A DNA stretch of 53,649 nt from Defluviitaleaceae bacterium (GTDB taxonomy: Bacteria; Bacillota; Clostridia; Lachnospirales; WRAX01), in the NCBI GenBank assembly GCA_009781625.1, contig WQVI01000001.1, positions 1-53,649 of the forward strand. Reading direction: 5' to 3'. Positions 794-42,849 of the stretch are shown piece by piece. A model generated the notes under the pieces. The model made no database searches, had not been told where the DNA came from, and saw only the letters and a program-made list of their open reading frames with translations. A program made the position numbers and the translations under genes. The first letter of the stretch is position 1, and each line of letters begins with the position of its first letter.

Positions 794-2791
794 GTGGTGA
801 TTATTTTGAAGATATTAGACAACAAACTGCCAAATTACCCCAAATTTGCACAGGACATACGTCGCGCACCCAGCCGTGGTTTCCGCTTGACAGAGGCACA
901 GGCCCAAACAGCCCTTAAAAACGCCTTGCGCTATGTGCCAAAAGAGCTTCACGAAACCCTGGCACCTGAATTTATGCAAGAGCTTATCACCCATGGCCGC
1001 ATTTACGCCTACCGCTATCGCCCCGAAGGCCGCATTTACGGCAAGCCCATAGACCAATACCGAGGCAAATGCCTGGAAGGCAAGGCTTTTCAAGTGATGA
1101 TAGATAATAATTTAGATTTTGACATAGCCCTTTACCCCTACGAACTTATTACATACGGCGAAACAGGTGCCGTGTGCCAAAACTGGCTGCAATACAGGCT
1201 TATCATACAATATCTGCAAGAGCTTGACCATAACAACACCCTTGTTATAGCCAGCGGCCACCCCGTTGGCCTTTTCCCATCCCATCCCGCCGCACCCCGC
1301 GTAATAGTCACCAACGGCCTAATGATAGGCATGTATGATAATCTTGATGACTTTGAAATTGCCGCCCAAATGGGCGTTGCCAGCTACGGCCAAATGACGG
1401 CCGGCGGGTGGATGTATATCGGCCCCCAAGGCATTGTCCACGGCACTTACAACACCTTGCTTAATGTGGGCCGCAAGGTAATGGGCTTTGCTGTTGATGA
1501 CGACCTTCGCGGCAAGCTATTTGTCTCCAGCGGCCTGGGCGGCATGAGCGGCGCACAGCCCAAAGCCATAGAGCTTTGCGGCGGCGTCGGCATCATTGCC
1601 GAGGTAGACCCAAGCCGCATAGAAACCCGCCTATCCCAAGGCTGGGTGCGCGATGTGTGCCAAAGCCCCGCGGCGGCTTTCGAACTTGCCCAAAAATATC
1701 TGCTGGCCCGCCAGCCCTATTCCATAGCATATCAAGGCAATATTGTGGACCTTTTACAATATGCCGTCCTAACCAACACCCACATCGACATTTTGACAGA
1801 CCAAACAAGCTGCCACAACGTCTACGACGGTGGCTATTGCCCGCAAATTACTTTTGAAGAGCGCACAAAGATGCTGGCCGAAAACCGCGAAGAATTTGTA
1901 AAGCTGGTTGACAAAACCTTGCGCCGCCACTATCAATGCATTCAGGCCCTAGCCGAGCGCGGCACCTATTTCTTCGATTACGGCAACTCCTTCCTAAAGG
2001 CCGTCTACGACACAGGCATAAAGGACATCAGCAAAAACGGCATAGACGAAAAAGATGGCTTTATCTTCCCATCATATGTGGAGCACATCCTGGGCCCGGA
2101 GCTTTTCGACTATGGCTACGGCCCCTTCCGCTGGGTGTGTCTTTCCGGCAACCCCGCCGACCTTGAAAAAACCGACGCCATGGCCGCCGCCTGTATAGAC
2201 CGCACCCGCCGCCCCGCCGACAACGACAATTACGTCTGGATAACCACAGCCGCCGAAAATAAGATGGTTGTGGGTACACTGGCACGCATTTTGTATCAAG
2301 ATGCCGAAGGCCGCACCAAAATTGCCCTAAAATTTAACGAAATGGTGCGTAACGGCGAGGTTGGCCCCATTATGTTAGGCCGCGACCATCACGATGTCTC
2401 CGGCACAGATTCGCCTTTCCGCGAAACCAGCAATATCAAGGACGGCAGCAATGTAATGGCCGATATGGCCACCCAATGCTTTGCCGGTAACGCCGCCCGG
2501 GGTATGTCCCTAATAGCCCTGCACAACGGCGGCGGCGTGGGCATAGGCAAATCTATCAATGGCGGCTTTGGCCTTGTCCTTGACGGTAGCGAGCGCGTGG
2601 ACAATATCATCAAATCCGCCATGATGTGGGATGTAATGGGCGGCATAGCCCGCCGCAACTGGGCCGGTAATGAGAACGCCATGGCTACCGCGGCAGAATA
2701 TAACGAAAAGCATGACGGCCATATAACCCTGCCCAATGTTGCTGATGATGTCCTTATTGAAACTGTCGTTCAAAGTGCCTTGCAGGCCTAG
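794..2791 (+). CDS. hutU: Urocanate hydratase
   Basis: 665 aa with urocanase-like length and motifs (GHPVGLFPSH..., GGMSGAQPKA, LHNGGGVGIG). The start may be TTG at 806, given GGAG at 791-794. Confidence 0.9.
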   Translation: MVIILKILDNKLPNYPKFAQDIRRAPSRGFRLTEAQAQTALKNALRYVPKELHETLAPEFMQELITHGRIYAYRYRPEGRIYGKPIDQYRGKCLEGKAFQVMIDNNLDFDIALYPYELITYGETGAVCQNWLQYRLIIQYLQELDHNNTLVIASGHPVGLFPSHPAAPRVIVTNGLMIGMYDNLDDFEIAAQMGVASYGQMTAGGWMYIGPQGIVHGTYNTLLNVGRKVMGFAVDDDLRGKLFVSSGLGGMSGAQPKAIELCGGVGIIAEVDPSRIETRLSQGWVRDVCQSPAAAFELAQKYLLARQPYSIAYQGNIVDLLQYAVLTNTHIDILTDQTSCHNVYDGGYCPQITFEERTKMLAENREEFVKLVDKTLRRHYQCIQALAERGTYFFDYGNSFLKAVYDTGIKDISKNGIDEKDGFIFPSYVEHILGPELFDYGYGPFRWVCLSGNPADLEKTDAMAAACIDRTRRPADNDNYVWITTAAENKMVVGTLARILYQDAEGRTKIALKFNEMVRNGEVGPIMLGRDHHDVSGTDSPFRETSNIKDGSNVMADMATQCFAGNAARGMSLIALHNGGGVGIGKSINGGFGLVLDGSERVDNIIKSAMMWDVMGGIARRNWAGNENAMATAAEYNEKHDGHITLPNVADDVLIETVVQSALQA

Positions 2792-31377: not shown

Positions 31378-31544
31378 CTAGGGCCTGTTCCCACTATAAG
31401 AAAATGCAGATTTGCGAGGCGATTTTTCGCCAGGCAAGGAGCCGACGACGACGCGTGTCTAGAGACACGCTAGGAGAAGGCGACGCAGAATGGCGGAAAC
31501 ATCGACCGCAAATGTGCGTTTTCGTTAGTGGGAACAGGCCCTAG
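31378..31544. repeat. 167-bp MITE-like palindromic element with 19-bp perfect terminal inverted repeats
   Basis: ctagggcctgttcccacta (31378-31396) pairs with tagtgggaacaggccctag (31526-31544). Inner imperfect pairing joins gaaaatgcagatttgcg with cgcaaatgtgcgttttc. The central perfect palindrome is gcgtgtctagagacacgc. Confidence 0.75.
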
Positions 31545-31562
31545 CATATGAACTAAAAGGGT

Positions 31563-31949
31563 GTGGGGCAAATAAAATCCACTAAATTAAAAAAGCTTAT
31601 CTTCATTGCATTAGGGTTTTTCTTCGTAGGGTTAGGGGCTATCGGCATCATTATGCCCCTTTTGCCCACCACCCCCTTTATGCTTTTAGCCGCCATACTA
31701 TTTTCCAAAAGCAGCCAGCGTTTTCACAAATGGCTGCTAAAAAACCGCCTTTTCGGCCCATATATCAGGCATTACGAAAACGGCACCGGCGTGCCAAGGT
31801 CATTAAAAATAAGAACCCTTATCTTCCTTTGGGTGGGCCTTATCTCTTCCGCCATCTTGCTTAACACACCGTGGGTGTATTTTTTGCTGTTGGCAGTAGG
31901 CATTGGGGTTACAACGCATATCGTGCTAATTAAGAGAAGGGTCATTTAG
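31563..31949 (+). CDS. YbaN family (DUF454) inner membrane protein
   Basis: GLGAIGIIMPLLPTTPFMLLAAILFSKSS.RFHKWL is typical of YbaN. GTG start. Confidence 0.75.
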   Translation: MGQIKSTKLKKLIFIALGFFFVGLGAIGIIMPLLPTTPFMLLAAILFSKSSQRFHKWLLKNRLFGPYIRHYENGTGVPRSLKIRTLIFLWVGLISSAILLNTPWVYFLLLAVGIGVTTHIVLIKRRVI

Positions 31950-34013
31950 TACTTTTTGAATTTTTGATTTTGAAATTAAATAGACATCACCCATAACCTC
32001 AAGCTGCCCATCTTTTACCCGCATGGTGCTTTCTTCACATGCCACATACACGTCAATTTCCTCAGATAGAGGTATCAGATAGTTTTTGGTATGTGCTTGT
32101 TGTGCCAAAGTTTCAAGGGTGCATACAGCATGAGATTGAAGCGCGAAATTGTCAAGCCCAAGCCCGTTAAAAATTTCGGCAGGCTCTCTGTTGTTGTCGT
32201 CAATATACTTTCCATAAGCAAATTTTGCGCACATGTTCATGCCGCCGGCACTTGCCCCCATTATGACGGTGGCGCGGCTTTGCTTGATAACATCCGATAT
32301 TTCATATTCTTTTATAAAGGCATGAAGCCGGTCGCAATAGCCGCCATGCAAGAGGATGGCAGAGGCATTTGTCAGCAATTTATGCGCTTCTTCTTTGCTA
32401 ACGCGATAGTCGATAGAATGGTAATTTTCAAACACAACACCGGCAGCCTCAAACCATTTGTTTTTCGTAAAATCCAGCCATTCGTCATTTGTCTTATGTT
32501 CCGCCGGGGATGTGTAAATTATTGCAAGGGATTTTTTGTCAGGCATGTCATTGTTAAGCATCTGCCCAACCTCTTTGGGCATCGTACCATTAAACCAACC
32601 AAAATAATAATGAGTTTTTTTCATAAAGTCACCTTCCATTCGATATTCATTCTCAATTTTTTTCATCAATCCATCGTCCAGCCCCAAAAACCTGCAAATT
32701 TTCAGCGCGTCCTTTGGGATGGGGTCGTTTGCGCGGGCTTGGATGAGGCGATAATCCATAAAATCTGCGATGCGCCCAGCTGCGTGTAAATTAATATCAC
32801 CGGGCAAATTGGTAAGCCCAGAAACACGATAATACTGGGCTTTAGGTGCCGTAACACCGTCATAATGGGTGGATATCAGGCACACAGAGCCGCTTTGGGA
32901 AAGCCATGCCGCGGCAGCGCGCACAATGGCCGCCCCTTCCGCGGGATTTGTGGCGCGGGCGGGCTCGTCCAGGGCAACAAAGAGAAAATCGCGCCGCAGA
33001 CGGTCTGCAAGGGCATTAAGGCGCAAAACCTCGCCGCCAAAGCTGGATAGGCCGTGGGCAGTGTCTTGCAAATCCTGCGACACCAGAAAAATGCCGTCAA
33101 ACAGCGGTATTTCAGCCTCGTGCGCAAAGATGGGTATGCCCAGCGCGCATAGTGCCACATTTAGTGCGGCGGTTTTTATGGCCACGCTTTTGCCGCCCAT
33201 GTTTGCGCCTGTGATGATGGCAACACCCACGTCCGGCGTAAGCGTAACGGGCGTCATAACGCGGCCGCTTTGCGCCAAGGATGCCGATATCATAGGATTT
33301 GTCATGTCTCTTAGCATCACAGCAGTTTTACCAACTTTTGGCCTCACCGCCCCATGCTGCACGGCCAGCGCGGCCTTGGCCATGGCCAGGTCTAAGTCAC
33401 CCAGGCTTTCGATATTGCTGTTAAATGTCGGTAAATGTATGCGCAAACCAGCGGATAGCTCCGCCATAATGCGCATTTCCTCGGCATCTTCGGCGGCCAC
33501 AATCTCTTCCCACCGTGGCTTGTGTTCAGCGCTGTTTTTCTCGCGCCGTATAGCCGCCAACTGCGGTGAAAAACCATCCTCTATGGAAAACGGCGCAATA
33601 CGCGCCTTTTGCGGGTCTAGGATGTCCAGCGCCTTTGCCATGGGCGCAAAGGGCATGTCTACCAGACCCAATTGCGCGTCAACCTCGCTATAGGCCGCCA
33701 GAAAGCTTTCAAATGTCAGCAAAAAGCCTTTGATCTCAAATAGCTCTACCTCGTTTAGTGCTAAGCCCTCGCATTTGGCCAAAGTGCCGCGTATATTCTT
33801 GAAATGCACCATAATACCGCGCAAACCATCCAAATTCTGCCCCATCAGCTTTTCAATGTTGTCAAAACAGCGGTTTGCCGCGTCTTCTTCGCCACGCGCA
33901 AAGGGTGCTATTTGCCTAAGCTTTTCCGCACCGTAGGGCGTTGCCGGTGATAGCTGTTTCAAAACAAAATCAAGGCCGATGGCCTCTTTTTGGGCGTTGT
34001 CTAGTCCCAGCAT
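31926..34013 (-). CDS. MutS-like ATPase (MutS domain V) fused to a C-terminal peptidase S51 / class-I amidotransferase-like domain
   Basis: N-terminal ~460 aa carry ITGANMGGKSVAIKT (Walker A), FVALDEP (Walker B) and STHY. The C-terminal ~230 aa from MKKTHYYFGW carry LLHGGY and VIMGASAGGMNMC, which are S51-like. No stop codon separates the two parts. Confidence 0.7.
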   Translation of the reverse strand: MLGLDNAQKEAIGLDFVLKQLSPATPYGAEKLRQIAPFARGEEDAANRCFDNIEKLMGQNLDGLRGIMVHFKNIRGTLAKCEGLALNEVELFEIKGFLLTFESFLAAYSEVDAQLGLVDMPFAPMAKALDILDPQKARIAPFSIEDGFSPQLAAIRREKNSAEHKPRWEEIVAAEDAEEMRIMAELSAGLRIHLPTFNSNIESLGDLDLAMAKAALAVQHGAVRPKVGKTAVMLRDMTNPMISASLAQSGRVMTPVTLTPDVGVAIITGANMGGKSVAIKTAALNVALCALGIPIFAHEAEIPLFDGIFLVSQDLQDTAHGLSSFGGEVLRLNALADRLRRDFLFVALDEPARATNPAEGAAIVRAAAAWLSQSGSVCLISTHYDGVTAPKAQYYRVSGLTNLPGDINLHAAGRIADFMDYRLIQARANDPIPKDALKICRFLGLDDGLMKKIENEYRMEGDFMKKTHYYFGWFNGTMPKEVGQMLNNDMPDKKSLAIIYTSPAEHKTNDEWLDFTKNKWFEAAGVVFENYHSIDYRVSKEEAHKLLTNASAILLHGGYCDRLHAFIKEYEISDVIKQSRATVIMGASAGGMNMCAKFAYGKYIDDNNREPAEIFNGLGLDNFALQSHAVCTLETLAQQAHTKNYLIPLSEEIDVYVACEESTMRVKDGQLEVMGDVYLISKSKIQKVLNDPSLN

Positions 34014-34894
34014 AAATTTGTCCCCCCGATGTCAAAAACTGGCACAGGCAGTGCCTCACGCATCTTCTCTAGAAATTCCGCGCTATCAAAGCCATGGCCA
34101 TAGGGCGAAACAGGGTTTATCGTCACCGCAGCAAGATTTATGCGCCGCTTAACAGCCAGCGAGCCACCGCGTATGCGCACTTTCTGGGCAGTAGCAGGTG
34201 TGATAAGAATTTTCGCGGCATCATCCGCCACGATATAACAGTCGTAATTATCAGCAACTTTAGCGTCTGTCACGGCCCCCTCGATGTAAATATGCGTCAA
34301 TGACATATCCGCCTCGGGCAAGCAAAAGATATCGACTATATGCCGGGTTTGCGCGATTACACCATCCATGCTTTTGGACAACGACGCACCCGTCGCCAGC
34401 ACCACAGCATCAGCAATGCCGGGCATGGCAAGGCTTTTGCGGCCCACCGCCCCATCAACTATCACCTTGTCCGCGCCAAACCCGCGCAAATCCTTCACCA
34501 GCGAGGCAGCTTGCGCTGTGATGGACGGCCCCGCAATTTGCGCAAAGCCCGCCGACAGCGCGCGCATCACAACAATGCGGCCAAGGGGGGTGCCAATATC
34601 TGTCACGTCCAAAATTTCTTTTGTGATGTCGCACAGGCCGCGCTGTACCAGCAGCTTTTCCGCCGTGGCAATGATGCTGCCTCGCGGCACAAAAATACGC
34701 GGTTTTGGCGTACCCGTAACCGCATCAATTTCTTCACCGTCAAGGCCAATGCTCGTCAGCCCAAGGCGTACGGCGTTTTGCGCACCAAAGCCTTGTATCA
34801 AATAATTAAGCGTGGTGGTTTTACCCGCGTTTTTGGCCATACCGGCGATGGCGACGCTGCCGTATGGCATCAAGGTTTCAATCAAAGTTTTCAT
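34001..34894 (-). CDS. P-loop NTPase of unknown family
   Basis: GMAKNAGKTTTLNYL Walker A, 297 aa, overlapping the start of the MutS-like gene. Confidence 0.55.
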   Translation of the reverse strand: MKTLIETLMPYGSVAIAGMAKNAGKTTTLNYLIQGFGAQNAVRLGLTSIGLDGEEIDAVTGTPKPRIFVPRGSIIATAEKLLVQRGLCDITKEILDVTDIGTPLGRIVVMRALSAGFAQIAGPSITAQAASLVKDLRGFGADKVIVDGAVGRKSLAMPGIADAVVLATGASLSKSMDGVIAQTRHIVDIFCLPEADMSLTHIYIEGAVTDAKVADNYDCYIVADDAAKILITPATAQKVRIRGGSLAVKRRINLAAVTINPVSPYGHGFDSAEFLEKMREALPVPVFDIGGTNLCWD

Positions 34895-35390: not shown

Positions 35391-35474
35391 GCCGTGCTTT
35401 TTACGGGATAATTATATCACCACATTTATCCAAAGTCAATATTTATTTTGGTTTTAAGCTGTCGCAAAATTATA

Positions 35475-36781: not shown

Positions 36782-37732
36782 CTTGATCATCTTGAACACC
36801 CTTCTATAAACGCCGGTATCATCGGCTTTAGAAAGATGCTCATAGGGTGTTCAATGAGCATCCTTGTCTGTGTTATAAAAAAATCACTGGATTGCTTCGG
36901 ACTTGTAATGACATTTCAACTGCCACGGACATCCAGTTAGCAACGTAACGTCCAACTGTCATTGCGAGGCCAATGGTGGTTGAAAGGCCAATACAGTACA
37001 GGGCCGAAGCAATCCAGCTTACGTCAACATCAAAATTTATACTCATCGGCTAACTGGATTGCTTCGGACTTGTGCTGCATCATAATTCAACCATCGTAGT
37101 CCTCGCAATGACAATTGAACTATCACGGACATCCCTATAACAACGCAACGTCCAACTGTCATTGCGAGGCCAATGGTGGTTGAAAGGCCAATACAGTACA
37201 GGGCCGAAGCAATCCAGCTTACGTCAACATCAAAATTTATACTCATCGGCTATCTGGATTGCTTCGGACTTGTACTTCATCATAATTCAACTGTCGTAGT
37301 CCTCGCAATGACAATTGAACTATCACGGACATCCCTATAACAACGCAACGTCCAACCGTCATTGCGAGGCCAATGGTGGTTGAAAAGCCAGTGCAGTACA
37401 AGGCCGAAGCAATCCAGCTTACGTCAACATCAAAATTTACACACATCGGCTATCTGGATTGCTTCGGACTTGCACCGCATCATAATTCAACTGCCATAGT
37501 CCTCGCAATGACATTTCAACTGCCGCGGACATCCGGTAGCAACACAACCGTCCAACTGTCATTGCAAGGCCAACGGAAGTTGAAAAGCCAGTGTAGCACA
37601 GGGCCGAAGCAATCCAGCAACACATATCCATACAATTATTACACAGAGAAGGATGCTCATTGAACACCCCTTGAACATCTTTCTAAACCCCATGATACCG
37701 GCGTTTATAGAAGGGTGTTCAAGATGATCAAG
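36782..37732. repeat. 951-bp composite element: ~82-97-bp outer inverted repeats enclosing four tandem ~200-bp hairpin units
   Basis: 36782-36863 is the reverse complement of 37651-37732. Units begin with CTGGATTGCTTCGGAC at 36887, 37054, 37254 and 37454, and each ends with GGCCGAAGCAATCCAG. Confidence 0.9.
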
Positions 37733-37783: not shown

Positions 37784-38821
37784 ATGGAGAAAAAACTTTG
37801 CAAATACGGTACCAACAGGGTGATAGCGCCCCAGGGCGTGCTGCCCCAGGCGGCCCAGAAAATTGACAATGATATGACCATCCATGAAAACGAAATTTTA
37901 ATTGACGTTATCTCGCTTAATGTCGATTCTGCCTCGTTTACACAGCTTCGCGGTGAGGCAGGCGACGATGAGGGCAAGATAGCCGCCAAAATTATGGAAA
38001 TTGTGGCAGAACGTGGCAAGATGCAAAACCCCGTAACGGGCAGCGGCGGCATGTTAATTGGCCGCGTGGCGCAAATAGGCGCGGCTCTTACAGGGCGCGA
38101 TATACAGGTTGGCGACAAGATAGCCACGCTGGTTTCCCTATCGTTAACACCGCTAAAAATCAATAAAATCAACGCCATCCAGATGAATATAGATAGGGTG
38201 GACGTGGATGCACAGGCCATCCTCTTTGAAACAGGCATATACGCCAAGCTGCCCGAAGATATGAGCGAAGCCCTGGCCCTGGCCGCCCTGGACGTGGCCG
38301 GTGCCCCCGCCCAAACCGCCAAACTGGCGCGCCCGGGTGACGCCGTGCTTGTTTTAGGCGCAGGGGGAAAGTCCGGCATGATGTGCTGCTTTGAGGCCAT
38401 GCGCCGCGTTGGCCCAACGGGCAATGTCGTGGGCATGGTGCGTAGCCAAGCTGACCGTGAAAAGCTGATGGCTAACGGGCTATGCCACGACGTTATCGTA
38501 TCTGATGTAACCCAGGCCCTAGATGTGCTGGAAAAAGTGCTTGCCGCCAACAATGGGCGCGAATTTGATATTAGCATCAACTGCGTAAATGTCCCCAACA
38601 GCGAAATGGCCAGCATCCTGCCCGTGCGCGATGGCGGCACGGTGTATTTCTTCTCCATGGCCGTTAGCTTTACAAAAGCCGCGCTGGGCGCGGAAGGCGT
38701 TGGCAAGGATGTTAACATGATAGTGGGCAATGGCTACACCCGCGGCCATGCGGAAATTACACTGGCACAGCTGCGAGAAAGTGCCGCGCTACGTCAGATT
38801 TTTGAGGAAAAATATGTGTGA
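37784..38821 (+). CDS. kdd: L-erythro-3,5-diaminohexanoate dehydrogenase
   Basis: 345 aa. N-terminus KYGTNRVIAPQGVLPQAA..., NPVTGSGGML and a GAGGKSG Rossmann motif. Pathway context. Confidence 0.8.
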   Translation: MEKKLCKYGTNRVIAPQGVLPQAAQKIDNDMTIHENEILIDVISLNVDSASFTQLRGEAGDDEGKIAAKIMEIVAERGKMQNPVTGSGGMLIGRVAQIGAALTGRDIQVGDKIATLVSLSLTPLKINKINAIQMNIDRVDVDAQAILFETGIYAKLPEDMSEALALAALDVAGAPAQTAKLARPGDAVLVLGAGGKSGMMCCFEAMRRVGPTGNVVGMVRSQADREKLMANGLCHDVIVSDVTQALDVLEKVLAANNGREFDISINCVNVPNSEMASILPVRDGGTVYFFSMAVSFTKAALGAEGVGKDVNMIVGNGYTRGHAEITLAQLRESAALRQIFEEKYV

Positions 38822-38831
38822 TAATGATGCC

Positions 38832-39341
38832 ATGACGCCGCATACGGGCGAACACAGTTCGCCCCTACGAAGGCGCAAAGCAAACCGTTTAAAAGATTAC
38901 GACTATAGCCAAGCAGGTGCGTATTTTGTGACGATATGCACAAAAGACCATGCCCATTTATTTGGAAGCATCAGTAGGGGCGAACTGTGTTCGCCCGTAT
39001 GCCAAACGCATCTGTCACCAATTGGAGAAATTGTCGAATCTGAAATAGAAAAGCTTTCAGCAACTTATGATATGGCCTATGTCAATCTCTATGTCATCAT
39101 GCCAAATCATGTCCATATGATAATCGTTATTCGACATAATAACGGGCGAACACAGTTCGCCCCTACGTTGTCGCGCATCATAAAGCAATGGAAAGGGGCA
39201 ATAACAAAAAGAATTGGCCGCCCTATCTGGCAAAAATCCTTTTACGACCGTATAATCCGCAATGAAGGCGACTATCTTCGCATTGCCGAATATATAGAAA
39301 CCAACCCGGCCAAATGGCAAGAAGACGAATACTATTCGTAG
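38832..39341 (+). CDS. REP-associated tyrosine transposase (RAYT, IS200-like HUH/Y1), copy 1
   Basis: YFVTICT, HUH motif MPNHVHMII, WQKSFYDRIIRN and EYIETNP. Three type-1 REP hairpins lie in frame (38844-68, 38974-98, 39142-66) and a fourth spans the stop. The start could also be ATG 38814. Confidence 0.8.
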   Translation: MTPHTGEHSSPLRRRKANRLKDYDYSQAGAYFVTICTKDHAHLFGSISRGELCSPVCQTHLSPIGEIVESEIEKLSATYDMAYVNLYVIMPNHVHMIIVIRHNNGRTQFAPTLSRIIKQWKGAITKRIGRPIWQKSFYDRIIRNEGDYLRIAEYIETNPAKWQEDEYYS

Positions 39342-39397: not shown

Positions 39398-40639
39398 ATG
39401 AAAAACAACATCTTCAAAAACATCCCCGCCGAAAATTGGAACAACTGGCAGTGGCATTTGCGCAATAAAATTGAGACGGTGGAAGATTTGAAAAAACTTT
39501 GTGACATCAGCGCAGCCGATGAAGTGGGCATTGCGCGCTGTCTTGAAACTTTTCGCATGGCCATCACGCCTCATTATTTTTCGCTGATAGATTTGCATGA
39601 CGAGCGCGACCCCGTGCGTGCCCAATGTGTGCCCAGCGTCTATGAAACCCATTTTGCCGGTGAAGATTTGGAAGACCCCCTGCATGAGGACGAGGATAGC
39701 CCGGCACCGGGCCTAACCCACCGCTATCCGGACCGTGCATTGCTTTTGGTAACGGACCAATGCGCCATGTATTGCCGCTTTTGCACCCGGCGGCGTTTTG
39801 CGGGACAAAAGGATGGCGCGCTGCCTATATCACAGGTGGATGCGGCCATAGACTATATCGAAAAGACGCCCGCCATCCGCGATGTGCTGCTATCCGGCGG
39901 CGATGCCATGCTGCTGCCTGATGATGCGCTAGAGCATATCCTAAAACGCCTGCGGGCCATACCCCATGTGGAGATAATCCGCTTTGGCTCGCGCCTGCCC
40001 GTGGTTTTGCCCCAACGCATCACGGATGAGCTATGCAACTTGCTGAAAAAATATCATCCCATCTGGGTTAACACCCATTTTAACCATCCGGCGGAAATTT
40101 CCCAGGCATCCATCGAAGCTTGCGAAAAGCTGGCAAATGCGGGCATACCCCTAGGCAACCAATCTGTGCTTCTGGCAGGTGTAAATGATTGCGTTCATGT
40201 CATGAAGCAGCTTGTCCAGCAGCTGGTAAAAATACGCGTGCGCCCATACTATTTGTATCAATGCGACCTTTCGCTGGGCCTGTCCCATTTCCGCACGCCT
40301 GTGGCCAAAGGTATCGAGATTATCGAAGGCCTGCGCGGTCACACCTCGGGCTATGCCGTGCCCACCTTCGTTGTAGACGCGCCCGGCGGCGGCGGCAAGA
40401 TACCCGTCATGCCTAACTATGTGGTGTCCCACGGCACACACAAGGTCATCCTGCGCAACTACGAAGGCGTCATCACCACATATACCGAGCCTGAAACCTA
40501 CCAACATACCTGCAACTGCCCTGTGTGCCGCGGAGATGAAAAGGCACAATATGAGGGACTTGCAGCGTTGATGAACAACCAAAAGCTGGCGATAGAGCCG
40601 GCAGATTTGGCCCGGCGCAGGAGGAAACATAATGGGTAA
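39398..40639 (+). CDS. kamA: Lysine 2,3-aminomutase (radical SAM)
   Basis: CAMYCRFCTRRR (CxxxCxxC), LLSGGDAMLL and a C-terminal Cys cluster CNCPVC. Confidence 0.92.
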   Translation: MKNNIFKNIPAENWNNWQWHLRNKIETVEDLKKLCDISAADEVGIARCLETFRMAITPHYFSLIDLHDERDPVRAQCVPSVYETHFAGEDLEDPLHEDEDSPAPGLTHRYPDRALLLVTDQCAMYCRFCTRRRFAGQKDGALPISQVDAAIDYIEKTPAIRDVLLSGGDAMLLPDDALEHILKRLRAIPHVEIIRFGSRLPVVLPQRITDELCNLLKKYHPIWVNTHFNHPAEISQASIEACEKLANAGIPLGNQSVLLAGVNDCVHVMKQLVQQLVKIRVRPYYLYQCDLSLGLSHFRTPVAKGIEIIEGLRGHTSGYAVPTFVVDAPGGGGKIPVMPNYVVSHGTHKVILRNYEGVITTYTEPETYQHTCNCPVCRGDEKAQYEGLAALMNNQKLAIEPADLARRRRKHNG

Positions 40640-41171
40640 TGCGCCTTCTCGTAAGCCTAACCGCTTGGAAAATCACGACTATGCACAGCCTGGCACATAT
40701 TTTATCACAATATGCTCTAAAGGCCACCAGCAACTGTTTGGCACAATTGCCTTGGGGAGCGGGCGGCAAAATGCCGCCCCTACAAGCCTCATGAAGTTGT
40801 CGCCCATAGGAAGGATAGTTGAAGCAGAAATAATGCGGCTATCCCGCACCTATGAAGGGGTTTATGTAGACTGTTATGTCGTTATGCCAAACCATGTTCA
40901 TATGATCATCGTCATCCGCAACATCCACGGGCGGCAAGATGCCTCCCCTACGATATCCCAGATGATGAATCAATGGAAAAGGGCAGCTTCTATAAAAGCA
41001 GGCTCATCTATTTGGCAAAAATCCTTTCATGACCATATAATACGCAACCAGGTTAGATATAACCTCATTGTTCAATATATAGCATGTAATCCAGAAATTT
41101 GGGAGAAGGACATTTATTTCATGGGGCCTGGACGTCCTTACATCGCCCCTTCGGACCGCCCCATTTTGTAG
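40632..41171 (+). CDS. REP-associated tyrosine transposase (RAYT), copy 2
   Basis: YFITICS, MPNHVHMII, WQKSFHDHIIRN and QYIACNP. The ATG overlaps the kamA 3' end by 8 nt. Type-2 REP hairpins lie in frame at 40759-83 and 40927-51. Confidence 0.8.
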   Translation: MGNAPSRKPNRLENHDYAQPGTYFITICSKGHQQLFGTIALGSGRQNAAPTSLMKLSPIGRIVEAEIMRLSRTYEGVYVDCYVVMPNHVHMIIVIRNIHGRQDASPTISQMMNQWKRAASIKAGSSIWQKSFHDHIIRNQVRYNLIVQYIACNPEIWEKDIYFMGPGRPYIAPSDRPIL

Positions 41172-41295: not shown

Positions 41296-42849
41296 ATCAA
41301 CCCCAAACTAAACCTAAGCCAGCACCAAATAGACCAATGCCGCAGCCACGCCAAAAACATCGCTGCTGATATGCAAAACTTCATCGCTCAGCACACCACC
41401 GTTGCCACAGAGCGCACGGTTTGCCGCCTACTGGGCATTGACGGCGTGGACGACATCGGCGTGCCCATGCCCAATGTGGTAGTGGCCCATCTGGCTGAAA
41501 ACCACCTGCTGGGCGCAGGAGCCGCCTTGATGCTGGGCAATGCCATGGCGCATCTTGGCAAAAGTCCGCAAAAAATCGCTGAGGGCATCAGCAGTGGTCA
41601 GATTCATTTGTCAAAAATACCTATGGGCGATGTGGCCGTAATCACCCAGGCCATAAACACCACTGCGGTCCAGTCCGTGGAGAAAATCCGCGCAAACCGC
41701 ATGGCCCGTGAGGATTTTTTGGCCCAACATCCGGATAGACAGGCGCCGCTGCTTTATGTCATCGTTGCCACAGGCAATATTTACGAGGACATAACACAGG
41801 CCCAAGCCGCCGTGGCTCAAGGTGCCGACATCATCGCCGTCATCCGCACCACAGGCCAAAGCCTGCTGGACTATGTGCCCTACGGCGCCACCACAGAGGG
41901 TTTTGGCGGCACCTACGCCACCCAAGAAAACTTTCGCCTGATGCGCGCCGCCCTTGACGAGGCGGGCCACGCAGCGGGCCGCTACATCCGCCTTTGCAAC
42001 TACGCCAGCGGCCTATGTATGCCCGAAATTGCCGCCATGGGCGCGTTAGAGCGTCTTGACGTAATGCTTAACGATGCCCTTTACGGCATACTTTTTCGTG
42101 ACATCAACATGAAGCGCACCATGATAGACCAATACTTTTCCCGCGTCATTAACGGCTTTGCGGGTATTATCATCAACACGGGCGAGGACAACTACCTTAC
42201 CACGGCGGATGCGGTAGAGGAAGCGCATACCGTTCTTACCAGTCAGTTTCTTAATGAGCAATTCGCACTTCTGGCGGGCCTTCCTGAAGAGCAAATGGGC
42301 CTTGGCCACGCTTTTGAAATTGCCCCCGACGTAAAAAACGGCTTTTTATACGAAATTGCCCAAGCCCAGATGGCCCGCGAGATTTTTCCCACAGCACCAC
42401 TAAAATACATGCCGCCTACAAAGTTTATGACAGGCGACATCTTTATGGGTACCGTACAAAACGCGCTGTTTAACGCCGCCACCGTGATGACGGGGCAAAA
42501 AATCCATCTTTTGGGAATGCTGACAGAAGCCATACACACGCCGTTTATGTCAGACCGCGCCCAAGCGCTGGATTCTGCTGGCTACATCGCCCATACCATG
42601 GCCGACATGGCCAATGAAATAGAATTTAAGCAAGACGGCATCATACAGCAGCGCGCCGCAGAGGTGCTGGACAAAGCCTGTGGCCTTCTGGCCACAATAG
42701 AGCAAAATAAGCTTTTTGCCACGCTAGAACAAGGCATCTTCGCGGGCATAAAGCGCGGCCGCGATGCAGGCAAGGGCCTAGATGGCGTTGTCCTCAAGGC
42801 CGAGGGTTATTTCAACCCATTTATTGACATGATGTTAGCGGGAGATTAA
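41296..42849 (+). CDS. kamD: Beta-lysine/D-lysine 5,6-aminomutase alpha subunit
   Basis: HTTVATERTVCRLLGIDGVD...LLYVIVATGNIYEDITQA...GATTEGFGGTYATQENFRLMR closely matches remembered KamD. The first ATG is at 41371, but homology (KLNLSQ...) continues upstream to an SD-positioned ATC at 41296, so the start is uncertain. Confidence 0.85.
   Translation: MNPKLNLSQHQIDQCRSHAKNIAADMQNFIAQHTTVATERTVCRLLGIDGVDDIGVPMPNVVVAHLAENHLLGAGAALMLGNAMAHLGKSPQKIAEGISSGQIHLSKIPMGDVAVITQAINTTAVQSVEKIRANRMAREDFLAQHPDRQAPLLYVIVATGNIYEDITQAQAAVAQGADIIAVIRTTGQSLLDYVPYGATTEGFGGTYATQENFRLMRAALDEAGHAAGRYIRLCNYASGLCMPEIAAMGALERLDVMLNDALYGILFRDINMKRTMIDQYFSRVINGFAGIIINTGEDNYLTTADAVEEAHTVLTSQFLNEQFALLAGLPEEQMGLGHAFEIAPDVKNGFLYEIAQAQMAREIFPTAPLKYMPPTKFMTGDIFMGTVQNALFNAATVMTGQKIHLLGMLTEAIHTPFMSDRAQALDSAGYIAHTMADMANEIEFKQDGIIQQRAAEVLDKACGLLATIEQNKLFATLEQGIFAGIKRGRDAGKGLDGVVLKAEGYFNPFIDMMLAGD

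Follow-up and report, generated by a model that had tools for sequence, protein, structure and literature searches.

An in-frame join of KamC with an S51-family hydrolase in a Defluviitaleaceae genome: a singleton that is probably an incidental, recent fusion

Characterised enzymes of the S51 family act on Asp-X dipeptides and cyanophycin. In their maps of lysine-fermentation clusters, Perret et al. (2011; PMC3149608) show a gene labelled 'mutS' together with one for a hypothetical protein. That study was the only relevant one returned by our literature search on the KamB/KamC reactivase, in which no KamB/KamC paper was found, and the reactivase assignment therefore rests on NCBIfam equivalog models. 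The two systems meet in the DNA analysed here, a stretch of 53,649 nucleotides (hereafter the window) from contig WQVI01000001.1 of a Defluviitaleaceae bacterium (assembly GCA_009781625.1). Its relevant features are as follows.

31929..32624, minus strand: complete hydrolase unit of the S51 family (type 1 glutamine-amidotransferase-like), residues 464-695, 232 aa (Pfam PF03575); stop codon at 31926-31928
32625..32642, minus strand: in-frame linker CGA ATG GAA GGT GAC TTT (RMEGDF, residues 458-463), 18 nt without a stop
32629..32637, minus strand: Shine-Dalgarno sequence GGAAGGTGA, 4 nt 5' of the internal ATG at 32624-32622
32643..34013, minus strand: KamC part of the fusion ORF (residues 1-457), MutS-domain-V ABC-type ATPase (NF052383, Pfam MutS_V)
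34001..34894, minus strand: kamB, reactivase partner subunit, 297 aa, with P-loop GMAKNAGKTT (NCBIfam NF052386, reactivase_KamB)
35411..35439, minus strand: promoter-like site TTGACT-17-TATAAT, TG-extended, matching the consensus at 11 of 12 positions in a consensus scan; 5' of kamB, in the intergenic region between the divergent transcription units

In the ORF listing of the contig consensus, which derives from a metagenome-assembled genome (MAG), positions 31926-34013 of the minus strand form one uninterrupted frame of 695 aa with an ATG start, composed of KamC (residues 1-457), the RMEGDF linker (458-463) and the S51-family unit (464-695). The initial annotation had described a single in-frame ORF; indeed, it contains no internal stop, and every motif quoted there was located. 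In the KamC part these are Walker A GANMGGKS (269-276), FVALDEP (345-351) with Walker B residues D349-E350, and STHY (381-384) with T382-H383; in the S51 unit they are MKKTHYYFGW from Met464, LLHGG (554-558) and GASAGG (586-591). The Pfam search that the annotation had proposed as a check places both of its suggested domains above their curated cut-offs, with MutS_V (PF00488) at residues 266-398 (E 5.7e-18, 66 bits against 30.2) and Peptidase_S51 (PF03575) at residues 516-672 (E 9.8e-11, 42.1 bits against 23.9). Because Pfam finds no further family in the ORF, no MutS mismatch-binding domain is detected, as had been proposed for the N-terminal part.

The N-terminal part can be named more precisely. 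The ORF scores 412.4 bits against NF052383 (ATPase_KamC; cut-off 300), and profile position 507 of 508 is reached at residue 456. Eighteen stand-alone KamC proteins, 444-479 aa long, align with the KamC part over its full length, and the stretch T268-K275 and the pairs D349-E350 and T382-H383 are invariant in an alignment of 24 KamC homologs. The MutS equivalog models, by contrast, all score far below their cut-offs (mutS1 TIGR01070, 80 versus 641.7 bits; mutS2 TIGR01069, 153 versus 400; NF003810, 90 versus 480), and a DNA-repair MutS identity is excluded by these scores together with the domain content. Upstream, kamB scores 309 bits against NF052386 (cut-off 210), and the end of this gene, stop codon included, runs 13 nt into kamC. 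The operon kal-kce-kdd-kamA-kamD-kamE lies in the opposite orientation to kamB-kamC::S51, all within 11 kb, which bears out the divergence from a B12-dependent lysine operon noted in the initial annotation. Its mention of a possible MutS-like reactivase component in lysine clusters likewise fits the KamC and KamB assignments and the 'mutS' gene drawn by Perret et al. (2011). By these family assignments, KamC and KamB are the predicted reactivase of the adenosylcobalamin-dependent lysine 5,6-aminomutase (KamDE). The site at 35411..35439 is a candidate promoter of the kamB-kamC::S51 transcript; the evidence for it is weak because such sites are no more numerous in the region than in shuffled sequence.

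The C-terminal part had been proposed to be S51-like, which the Pfam match above upholds. Its predicted nucleophile, the serine of GASAGG (Ser588, codon 32250-32252), and His628 (codon 32130-32132) are invariant in an alignment of 18 subfamily members, in which the CEES stretch also retains an acidic residue, a candidate third member of the triad. An AlphaFold model covering the S51 unit only has a pLDDT of 93.2 and a pTM of 0.91; all 20 top Foldseek matches of this model in the PDB are S51 enzymes (E 3e-10 to 1e-5, TM 0.58-0.73), the best being cyanophycinase and peptidase E. The unit nevertheless scores far below the equivalog models for both enzymes (peptidase E NF003642, 15 versus 156 bits; cyanophycinase TIGR02069, 24.5 versus 126.6), and we classify it from profile scores as a member of the S51 superfamily that is neither peptidase E nor cyanophycinase. 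The subfamily is uncharacterised and carries the NCBI label 'type 1 glutamine amidotransferase-like domain-containing protein'; we found 97 stand-alone homologs, of 185-260 aa and up to 81% identical.

The junction retains the anatomy of two genes, and these share one frame because no stop codon lies between kamC and the S51 gene. KamC homologs terminate 0-8 residues (in a few cases up to about 20) past a conserved EY; in the alignment, the linker sits where they have a tail of 0-8 residues and a stop codon, and the fusion frame reads on. An A7 run just 5' of the junction was considered as a possible site of a hidden frameshift and rejected, since the frame follows the conserved KamC C-terminal motif LMxKIExEY (18 homologs) as far as residue 457. 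The 18-nt spacer itself contains no homopolymer longer than 3 nt. The S51 ribosome-binding site falls inside this spacer: the SD-like ggaaggtga that the initial annotation had seen before the internal Met lies at 32637-32629, 4 nt from the ATG. Its predicted anti-SD duplex (-13.9 kcal/mol) ranks first among the 25 in-frame ATGs of the ORF, and in the same prediction it outscores every neighbouring start that was tested, those of pheT, kal, kamA and kamC included. The same arrangement of SD, spacer and ATG is present in stand-alone S51 homologs, and the start Met of all 17 that were aligned falls in the Met464 column. Since no other SD in the ORF is as strong as the one ahead of Met464, the S51 part may be made separately, a possibility already raised in the initial annotation. 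A dedicated S51 promoter was rejected: a single promoter-like match at the junction (32632-32604) is irrelevant because its transcript would begin downstream of the S51 ATG.

The KamC-S51 fusion is a singleton among the collections searched. When 1.84 billion representative proteins were searched exhaustively with phmmer, each of the best 150 matches had its best stretch in one half of the protein or the other, and the four longest matches, checked individually, are without S51. The best 120 of 310 KamC homologs (399-493 aa) have MutS-type Pfam domains only, mainly MutS_V, and no S51 fusion. Similarly, kamC is separate and S51 lies on other contigs in both same-genus genomes and in 58 further relatives (60 genomes in all), and S51 is neither fused nor adjacent to kamC at any of about 97 loci inspected with up to 10 kb of flanking sequence. 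A scan of metagenome contigs with a degenerate DNA pattern of the junction gave no match, and same-species DNA was also sought there with an exact 27-mer of the kamC 3' end, which is absent. The 90% cluster of the fusion protein contains the window's own copy only, and the best relative, at 66% identity, is too distant for the stop-removing mutation to be reconstructed. Other one-off joins that involve the same S51 subfamily do exist. P0223 is an S51-GNAT protein of 553 aa with an N-terminal S51 domain, and an ORF on contig C4 of the independent genome G009 joins a small hydrophobic protein to S51 (360 aa); each is a singleton.

Genomic context gives the same picture. S51 orthologs at 81, 70 and 58% identity lie in three unrelated neighbourhoods, and none of 16 S51 loci examined in relatives has a lysine-fermentation gene in its vicinity. 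The sole nearby case is in relative L003, in which an S51 paralog of 28% identity belongs to a lysine-fermentation accessory operon (thiolase, CoA-transferase, aminotransferase) beside kamBC; this gene lies 6 kb from kamC in a separate operon, and it hints weakly at a functional connection to lysine fermentation. A conserved S51 linkage to lysine fermentation was thus rejected on about 97 kamC and 16 S51 loci, and the S51 gene family is without conserved linkage to kamBC or kamDE. The gene 3' of kamC varies among relatives and is BirA-like in both same-genus genomes, and pheT lies a few kb downstream of kamC here as well as in L003 and G001. The two halves differ sharply in GC content: among the long ORFs of the genome, S51 (0.417) ranks at the 4th percentile and kamC (0.533) at the 93rd.

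We postulate, with a probability of roughly 0.68, that a stand-alone S51 gene was relocated behind kamC with no stop between the two, and that the fusion so formed is incidental and recent, with free S51 protein probably still being produced. The S51 gene would have come to lie in the interval 3' of kamC that is variable among related genomes, with an 18-nt spacer that by chance is in frame and stop-free. Ribosomes translating kamC would then continue through the spacer, so that a 695-aa KamC-S51 protein should be made because the spacer is in frame and without stops, while independent synthesis of the 232-aa S51 protein probably remains possible from the internal ATG and its strong SD. The KamC part would be expected to do what KamC does in other lysine fermenters, and the S51 part to behave like its free-standing orthologs, making the join presumably neutral; we see no sign of cooperation between the two activities. 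The kept SD and start, together with the unameliorated GC difference, point to a recent join that is not yet optimised. Counting against an incidental origin, both halves are intact in the alignments, with their catalytic motifs.

That intactness is equally what would be expected of a functional, selected fusion, in which the S51 hydrolase is tethered to, or co-regulated with, the KamBC reactivase in lysine catabolism; for instance, beside the aminomutase machinery it might free the lysine of aspartyl- or beta-aspartyl-lysine dipeptides, or take off a blocking group. The established specificity of known S51 enzymes for Asp-X dipeptides and cyanophycin suits such a role, a C-terminal extension of KamC may be tolerated because tail lengths vary, and the L003 paralog provides a case of S51 in a lysine-fermentation operon beside kamBC. 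However, the L003 paralog is distant and belongs to another operon, 6 kb away from kamC, the S51 orthologs occur in unrelated contexts, no second fusion or adjacency exists in any collection searched, and the retained SD and start and the GC difference suggest a recent, unoptimised join. We consider selection for the fusion unlikely, and any suggestion that the fusion is a meaningful architecture is not sustained, given the lack of a second case and of conserved S51 linkage to kamBC or kamDE. A bolder version is quite improbable: it is tempting to picture KamC-S51 as a selected bifunctional enzyme of a termite-gut-type Clostridia lineage that, for example, frees lysine from Asp-Lys or beta-Asp-Lys at the entry to the pathway. 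If this were true, the L003 paralog would be a second sign of S51 recruitment to lysine fermentation.

The junction as assembled may instead reflect an error or a minority allele. A consensus artefact, with kamC really stopping and the two genes separate, could arise from TGA misread as CGA at 32640-32642, or from a 1-nt indel error that leaves one of two TGAs (in GGTGAC and in ATGAAA) out of frame in the contig. The genome is a 73%-complete MAG in 115 contigs, no same-species assembly was found in the collections searched, one base change in the spacer restores a stop at the homolog-typical position, and both the singleton status of the fusion and the S51 unit's full set of independent-gene features fit two separate genes. 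Yet the error must strike one particular codon in a spacer whose homopolymers are at most 3 nt, next to an A7 run that is in the correct frame; long genes are otherwise intact (the 1.71 Mb hold 947 ORFs of 250 aa or more), and the window's genes match NCBIfam models near full length. Moreover, stop-less joins do arise, because a comparable junction lies upstream of an S51 homolog in the independent genome G009. An artefact of this kind is, in our judgement, rather unlikely. Chimeric mis-assembly of two organisms or loci at the kamC/S51 boundary, which the sharp GC drop at the junction and the binned nature of the genome might suggest, is very improbable: the S51 GC content is inside the genome's own range, and the locus is syntenic with relatives on both sides (kamB-kamC on one, pheT on the other, in L003 and G001), so two false joins 0.7-1 kb apart would be required. 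A repeat-mediated mis-join was rejected, as the junction region is unrepeated in the genome beyond chance 14-16-mers and no shared k-mer accounts for a false join.

An incidental fusion has limited weight for biology at large, and its value is that of a well-documented example of fusion birth, in which translation of the upstream gene runs through an in-frame, stop-free spacer into a stand-alone gene that still has a ribosome-binding site and start of its own. For annotation, the N-terminal part should be named KamC and not MutS, and the upstream gene KamB, with the fusion itself flagged as provisional. Were the fusion functional, it would be the first hint at what this uncharacterised S51 subfamily acts on, and it would point to an accessory step in lysine fermentation; the evidence speaks against this.

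Compared with described systems, the locus shares with the KamC reactivase system a kamB gene directly upstream, the stop/start overlap and the linkage to kamD and kamE within a complete lysine-fermentation cluster. Other KamC proteins that we found have 399-523 aa, and KamC here differs from them by the 232-aa S51 unit after a 6-residue linker. With MutS1 and MutS2 the KamC part has the domain V ATPase (PF00488) in common, but it lacks mismatch-binding, connector and Smr domains. The S51 unit has the fold of peptidase E (1fy2, 6a4r), cyanophycinase (3en0, 7uqw) and Listeria Lmo0363 (3l4e), with a Foldseek probability of 1.0 and TM of 0.60-0.73, and the GxSxG nucleophile elbow is common to all of them, although identity to these structures is just 13-19%. 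P0223 and the G009 ORF resemble the fusion here in that an S51 gene of a kind that usually stands alone is in one frame with a neighbour unrelated to it, and in the G009 ORF the S51 SD and start Met are likewise kept; unlike the present fusion, they involve other partners, and in P0223 the domain order is reversed.

The open reading frame at 31926-34013 on the minus strand runs for 695 codons from an ATG, with no internal stop, and all of the sequence motifs listed in the initial annotation lie in this frame. Both of the domains proposed there exceed their Pfam gathering thresholds, namely MutS domain V (residues 266-398, E 5.7e-18) and Peptidase_S51 (residues 516-672, E 9.8e-11), and the Pfam search returned no third domain. 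Residues 1-456 are KamC, the lysine 5,6-aminomutase reactivase ATPase (NCBIfam NF052383, 412 bits against a cut-off of 300). A DNA-repair identity was rejected for this part because the NCBIfam MutS1 and MutS2 models fall far under their cut-offs. A complete S51-type unit spans residues 464-695; it has 97 stand-alone homologs (185-260 aa, identity up to 81%), to which NCBI gives no label beyond 'type 1 glutamine amidotransferase-like domain-containing protein'. Met464 lines up with the start methionine of every aligned homolog, the GxSAG serine (Ser588) and His628 are invariant in the alignment, and the unit folded alone yields a predicted structure with a pLDDT of 93.2 and a pTM of 0.91.

The KamC part belongs to a complete lysine-fermentation set, in which kal, kce, kdd, kamA, kamD and kamE lie on the plus strand, divergent from kamB-kamC. 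Two features lie upstream of the fusion ORF:

34001-34894, minus strand: kamB (NF052386, 309 bits against a cut-off of 210), directly upstream of kamC with a 13-nt overlap
35439-35411, minus strand: promoter-like site in the divergent intergenic region upstream of kamB, a weakly supported candidate promoter

A 'mutS' gene and a hypothetical-protein gene have already been drawn in lysine clusters (Perret et al., 2011; PMC3149608). Read from its first ATG, the KamD ORF (41371-42849) begins to align with the NCBIfam alpha-subunit profile no earlier than position 23, and thus seems either to lack about 22 N-terminal residues or to use a non-canonical start codon. The segments 36870-37700, 38730-39341 and 40632-41171 hold ~200-bp tandem repeats, situated between kce and kdd, and, within the lysine operon, two ORFs resembling REP-associated tyrosine transposases (RAYTs). 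The lysine 5,6-aminomutase of Clostridium sticklandii has an ATP-dependent activating protein. Because no biochemical description of KamB or KamC was found in the literature searched, we infer their reactivase function from the curated NCBIfam model names and from that activating protein. Full-length KamC homologs, 34-36% identical, occur in the Asgard archaea Promethearchaeum syntrophicum MK-D1, Lokiarchaeum ossiferum and two Promethearchaeum MAGs (loci L063, L079, L049, L056), so that the putative reactivase, and presumably the lysine pathway likewise, is common to these archaea and the window's lineage.

At the junction, alignment with 18 stand-alone KamC proteins confirms the reading frame up to and including the conserved C-terminal motif LMxKIExEY (residues 449-457), which rules out a frameshift hidden in the A7 run at the KamC 3' end. 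The closest KamC homologs terminate 0-8 residues past EY, and since tail length differs among homologs, a C-terminal extension on KamC may be tolerated. Here, an 18-nt spacer, CGA ATG GAA GGT GAC TTT (RMEGDF, 32642-32625), leads into the ATG at 32624-32622, with the Shine-Dalgarno (SD) sequence GGAAGGTGA lying in the spacer 4 nt upstream. Its predicted pairing is -13.9 kcal/mol with an assumed standard Firmicutes anti-SD tail, which may differ from the MAG's own 16S end; none of the ORF's other in-frame ATGs (25 in all) and no neighbouring gene start tested reaches this strength. Three stand-alone S51 genes share this SD-spacer-ATG layout in their start regions. Given this strength and shared layout, the S51 half retains every hallmark of a separate gene, and the linker resembles what was once a 3' tail or intergenic spacer, without a stop. 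The fusion could be created or abolished by one substitution (e.g., TGA to CGA) or by a 1-nt indel. A convergent DUF454 gene with a GTG start (31563-31949) overlaps the 3' end of the ORF by 24 nt (31926-31949), leaving no intergenic terminator between the converging transcription units.

The KamC-S51 fusion was not found elsewhere in seven separate tests. The best 120 of 310 KamC homologs from a collection of 5.8 billion proteins are 399-493 aa long and have no Pfam domains other than MutS-type ones, mainly MutS_V; S51 occurs among them solely in the window's own protein. When long proteins were scored with the S51 region alone, one other match emerged, P0223, which has the opposite order to the window's fusion and is itself a singleton. 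This JGI metagenome protein of 553 aa (singleton cluster, 3.8-kb contig) carries an N-terminal S51 followed by a GNAT acetyltransferase region, and is the only other long protein found with this S51 subfamily. Across 60 related genomes, two of them of the same genus, kamC matches end near residue 460, except for one (G016) that extends to residue 489 solely by read-through of two stop codons. The S51 homologs of these genomes sit on contigs other than that of kamC. A subfamily HMM detected no fused or adjacent S51 at ~97 kamC loci, including 80 from species-representative genomes, with flanks of up to 10 kb, and the only locus with an S51 nearby was L003, from a relative, about 6 kb off. A degenerate DNA pattern (kamC 'IExEY' codons, then S51 'M-x-K-x-x-YYFGW' codons within <=30 nt) matched the window once and none of the metagenome contigs in the collection. 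An exhaustive phmmer search covered 1.84 billion cluster representatives; for every one of the best 150 hits the best stretch lay in either residues 1-463 or 464-688, and the four longest hits checked lacked S51. The combination is literally new, not found among roughly 15 billion indexed proteins. The in-frame fusion of a MutS-like ATPase to an S51-like domain in the initial annotation is confirmed as an observation, and its interpretation holds in part: the MutS-V/KamC reactivase (NF052383) and S51 identities stand, and a reading of the fusion as a meaningful architecture finds no support.

The closest S51 orthologs (81, 70 and 58% identity) have neighbourhoods unrelated to one another: one lies behind an unknown gene that is itself downstream of pyrimidine-biosynthesis genes, one behind a TatD gene and one behind a UvrD gene. 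No lysine-fermentation gene was present in the fetched flanks of 16 S51 loci of related genomes. In locus L111 (G009:C4, 9286-10365), an S51 homolog of 42% identity follows an unrelated ORF of ~145 codons, encoding a hydrophobic, membrane-like protein, in frame and with no stop between, and still has an AGGAGG SD and a Met of its own, making it an apparent second read-through fusion in the same bacterial family. The kamC-pheT interval (31378-32624 in the window) is variable among relatives: it holds S51 and DUF454 in the window, a BirA-like gene following kamC in both same-genus genomes (L011, L012), and a Cu_amine_oxidN1 protein with small ORFs in L003. In L011 (G001:C53, 1522-2892), the KamC P0007 stops ~10 residues short (…LDEGLMA*), without reaching the conserved KIExEY, and the BirA-like ORF starts directly past its stop, another sign of kamC 3'-end plasticity. 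The L003 S51 paralog (998-1705, minus strand; 235 aa, 28% identical to the window's, in a relative whose KamC is 65% identical) belongs to an operon with a thiolase, two CoA-transferase subunits, a 4HBT thioesterase, GNATs and an Aminotran_3 gene, which adjoins kamBC and looks like a transaminase variant of lysine fermentation.

The window is one whole contig of a MAG of 1.71 Mb in 115 contigs (73% complete, 1.5% contamination), and the collections contain no other assembly of this species. Indirect evidence favours a junction that is real sequence. A consensus error or minority allele is quite unlikely to explain the fusion, as the spacer has no homopolymer >3 nt, the assembly has a normal number of long intact ORFs, and an independent genome, G009, has an analogous stop-less, SD-containing junction ahead of its S51 homolog. 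The S51 half has a GC of 0.417 and a GC3 of 0.418 (4th and 6th percentiles of the genome's long ORFs) and kamC a GC of 0.533 (93rd percentile), opposite extremes that fit two genes of different history joined recently, and alone prove neither chimera nor transfer. A chimeric assembly at the kamC/S51 boundary is highly improbable: the genome has no second copy of any part of the junction, which makes a k-mer-mediated false join unlikely, and both flanks are syntenic with relatives, since L003 and G001 likewise have kamB-kamC to one side and pheT a few kb downstream to the other.

We propose that kamB, kamC and S51 are probably carried on one transcript from the divergent intergenic region. Family membership leads us to expect that KamB and the KamC part serve, as in other lysine fermenters, as the ATP-dependent reactivase of KamDE. 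Ribosomes meeting no stop after the KamC part would continue into S51 to give a product of ~77 kDa, and the strong internal SD probably yields free S51 (~26 kDa) as well. A selected bifunctional protein tying peptide hydrolysis to lysine catabolism is unlikely; it is supported only by the S51 paralog of the accessory operon in L003 together with the intact domains, and we saw no sign of cooperation between the two activities. All of the evidence indicates an isolated event of no wider significance, a real-looking singleton in which kamC is fused to a probably relocated, stand-alone S51 gene.

Each half has familiar relatives. The KamC half is an ordinary member of the known KamC family. All 20 of the best PDB matches of the S51 model are S51 enzymes, including cyanophycinases, peptidase E and Listeria Lmo0363 (TM 0.58-0.73, identity 13-19%), and the unit does not reach the NCBIfam PepE and cyanophycinase equivalog cut-offs; the S51 half is an ordinary member of the S51 superfamily, in an uncharacterised subfamily.
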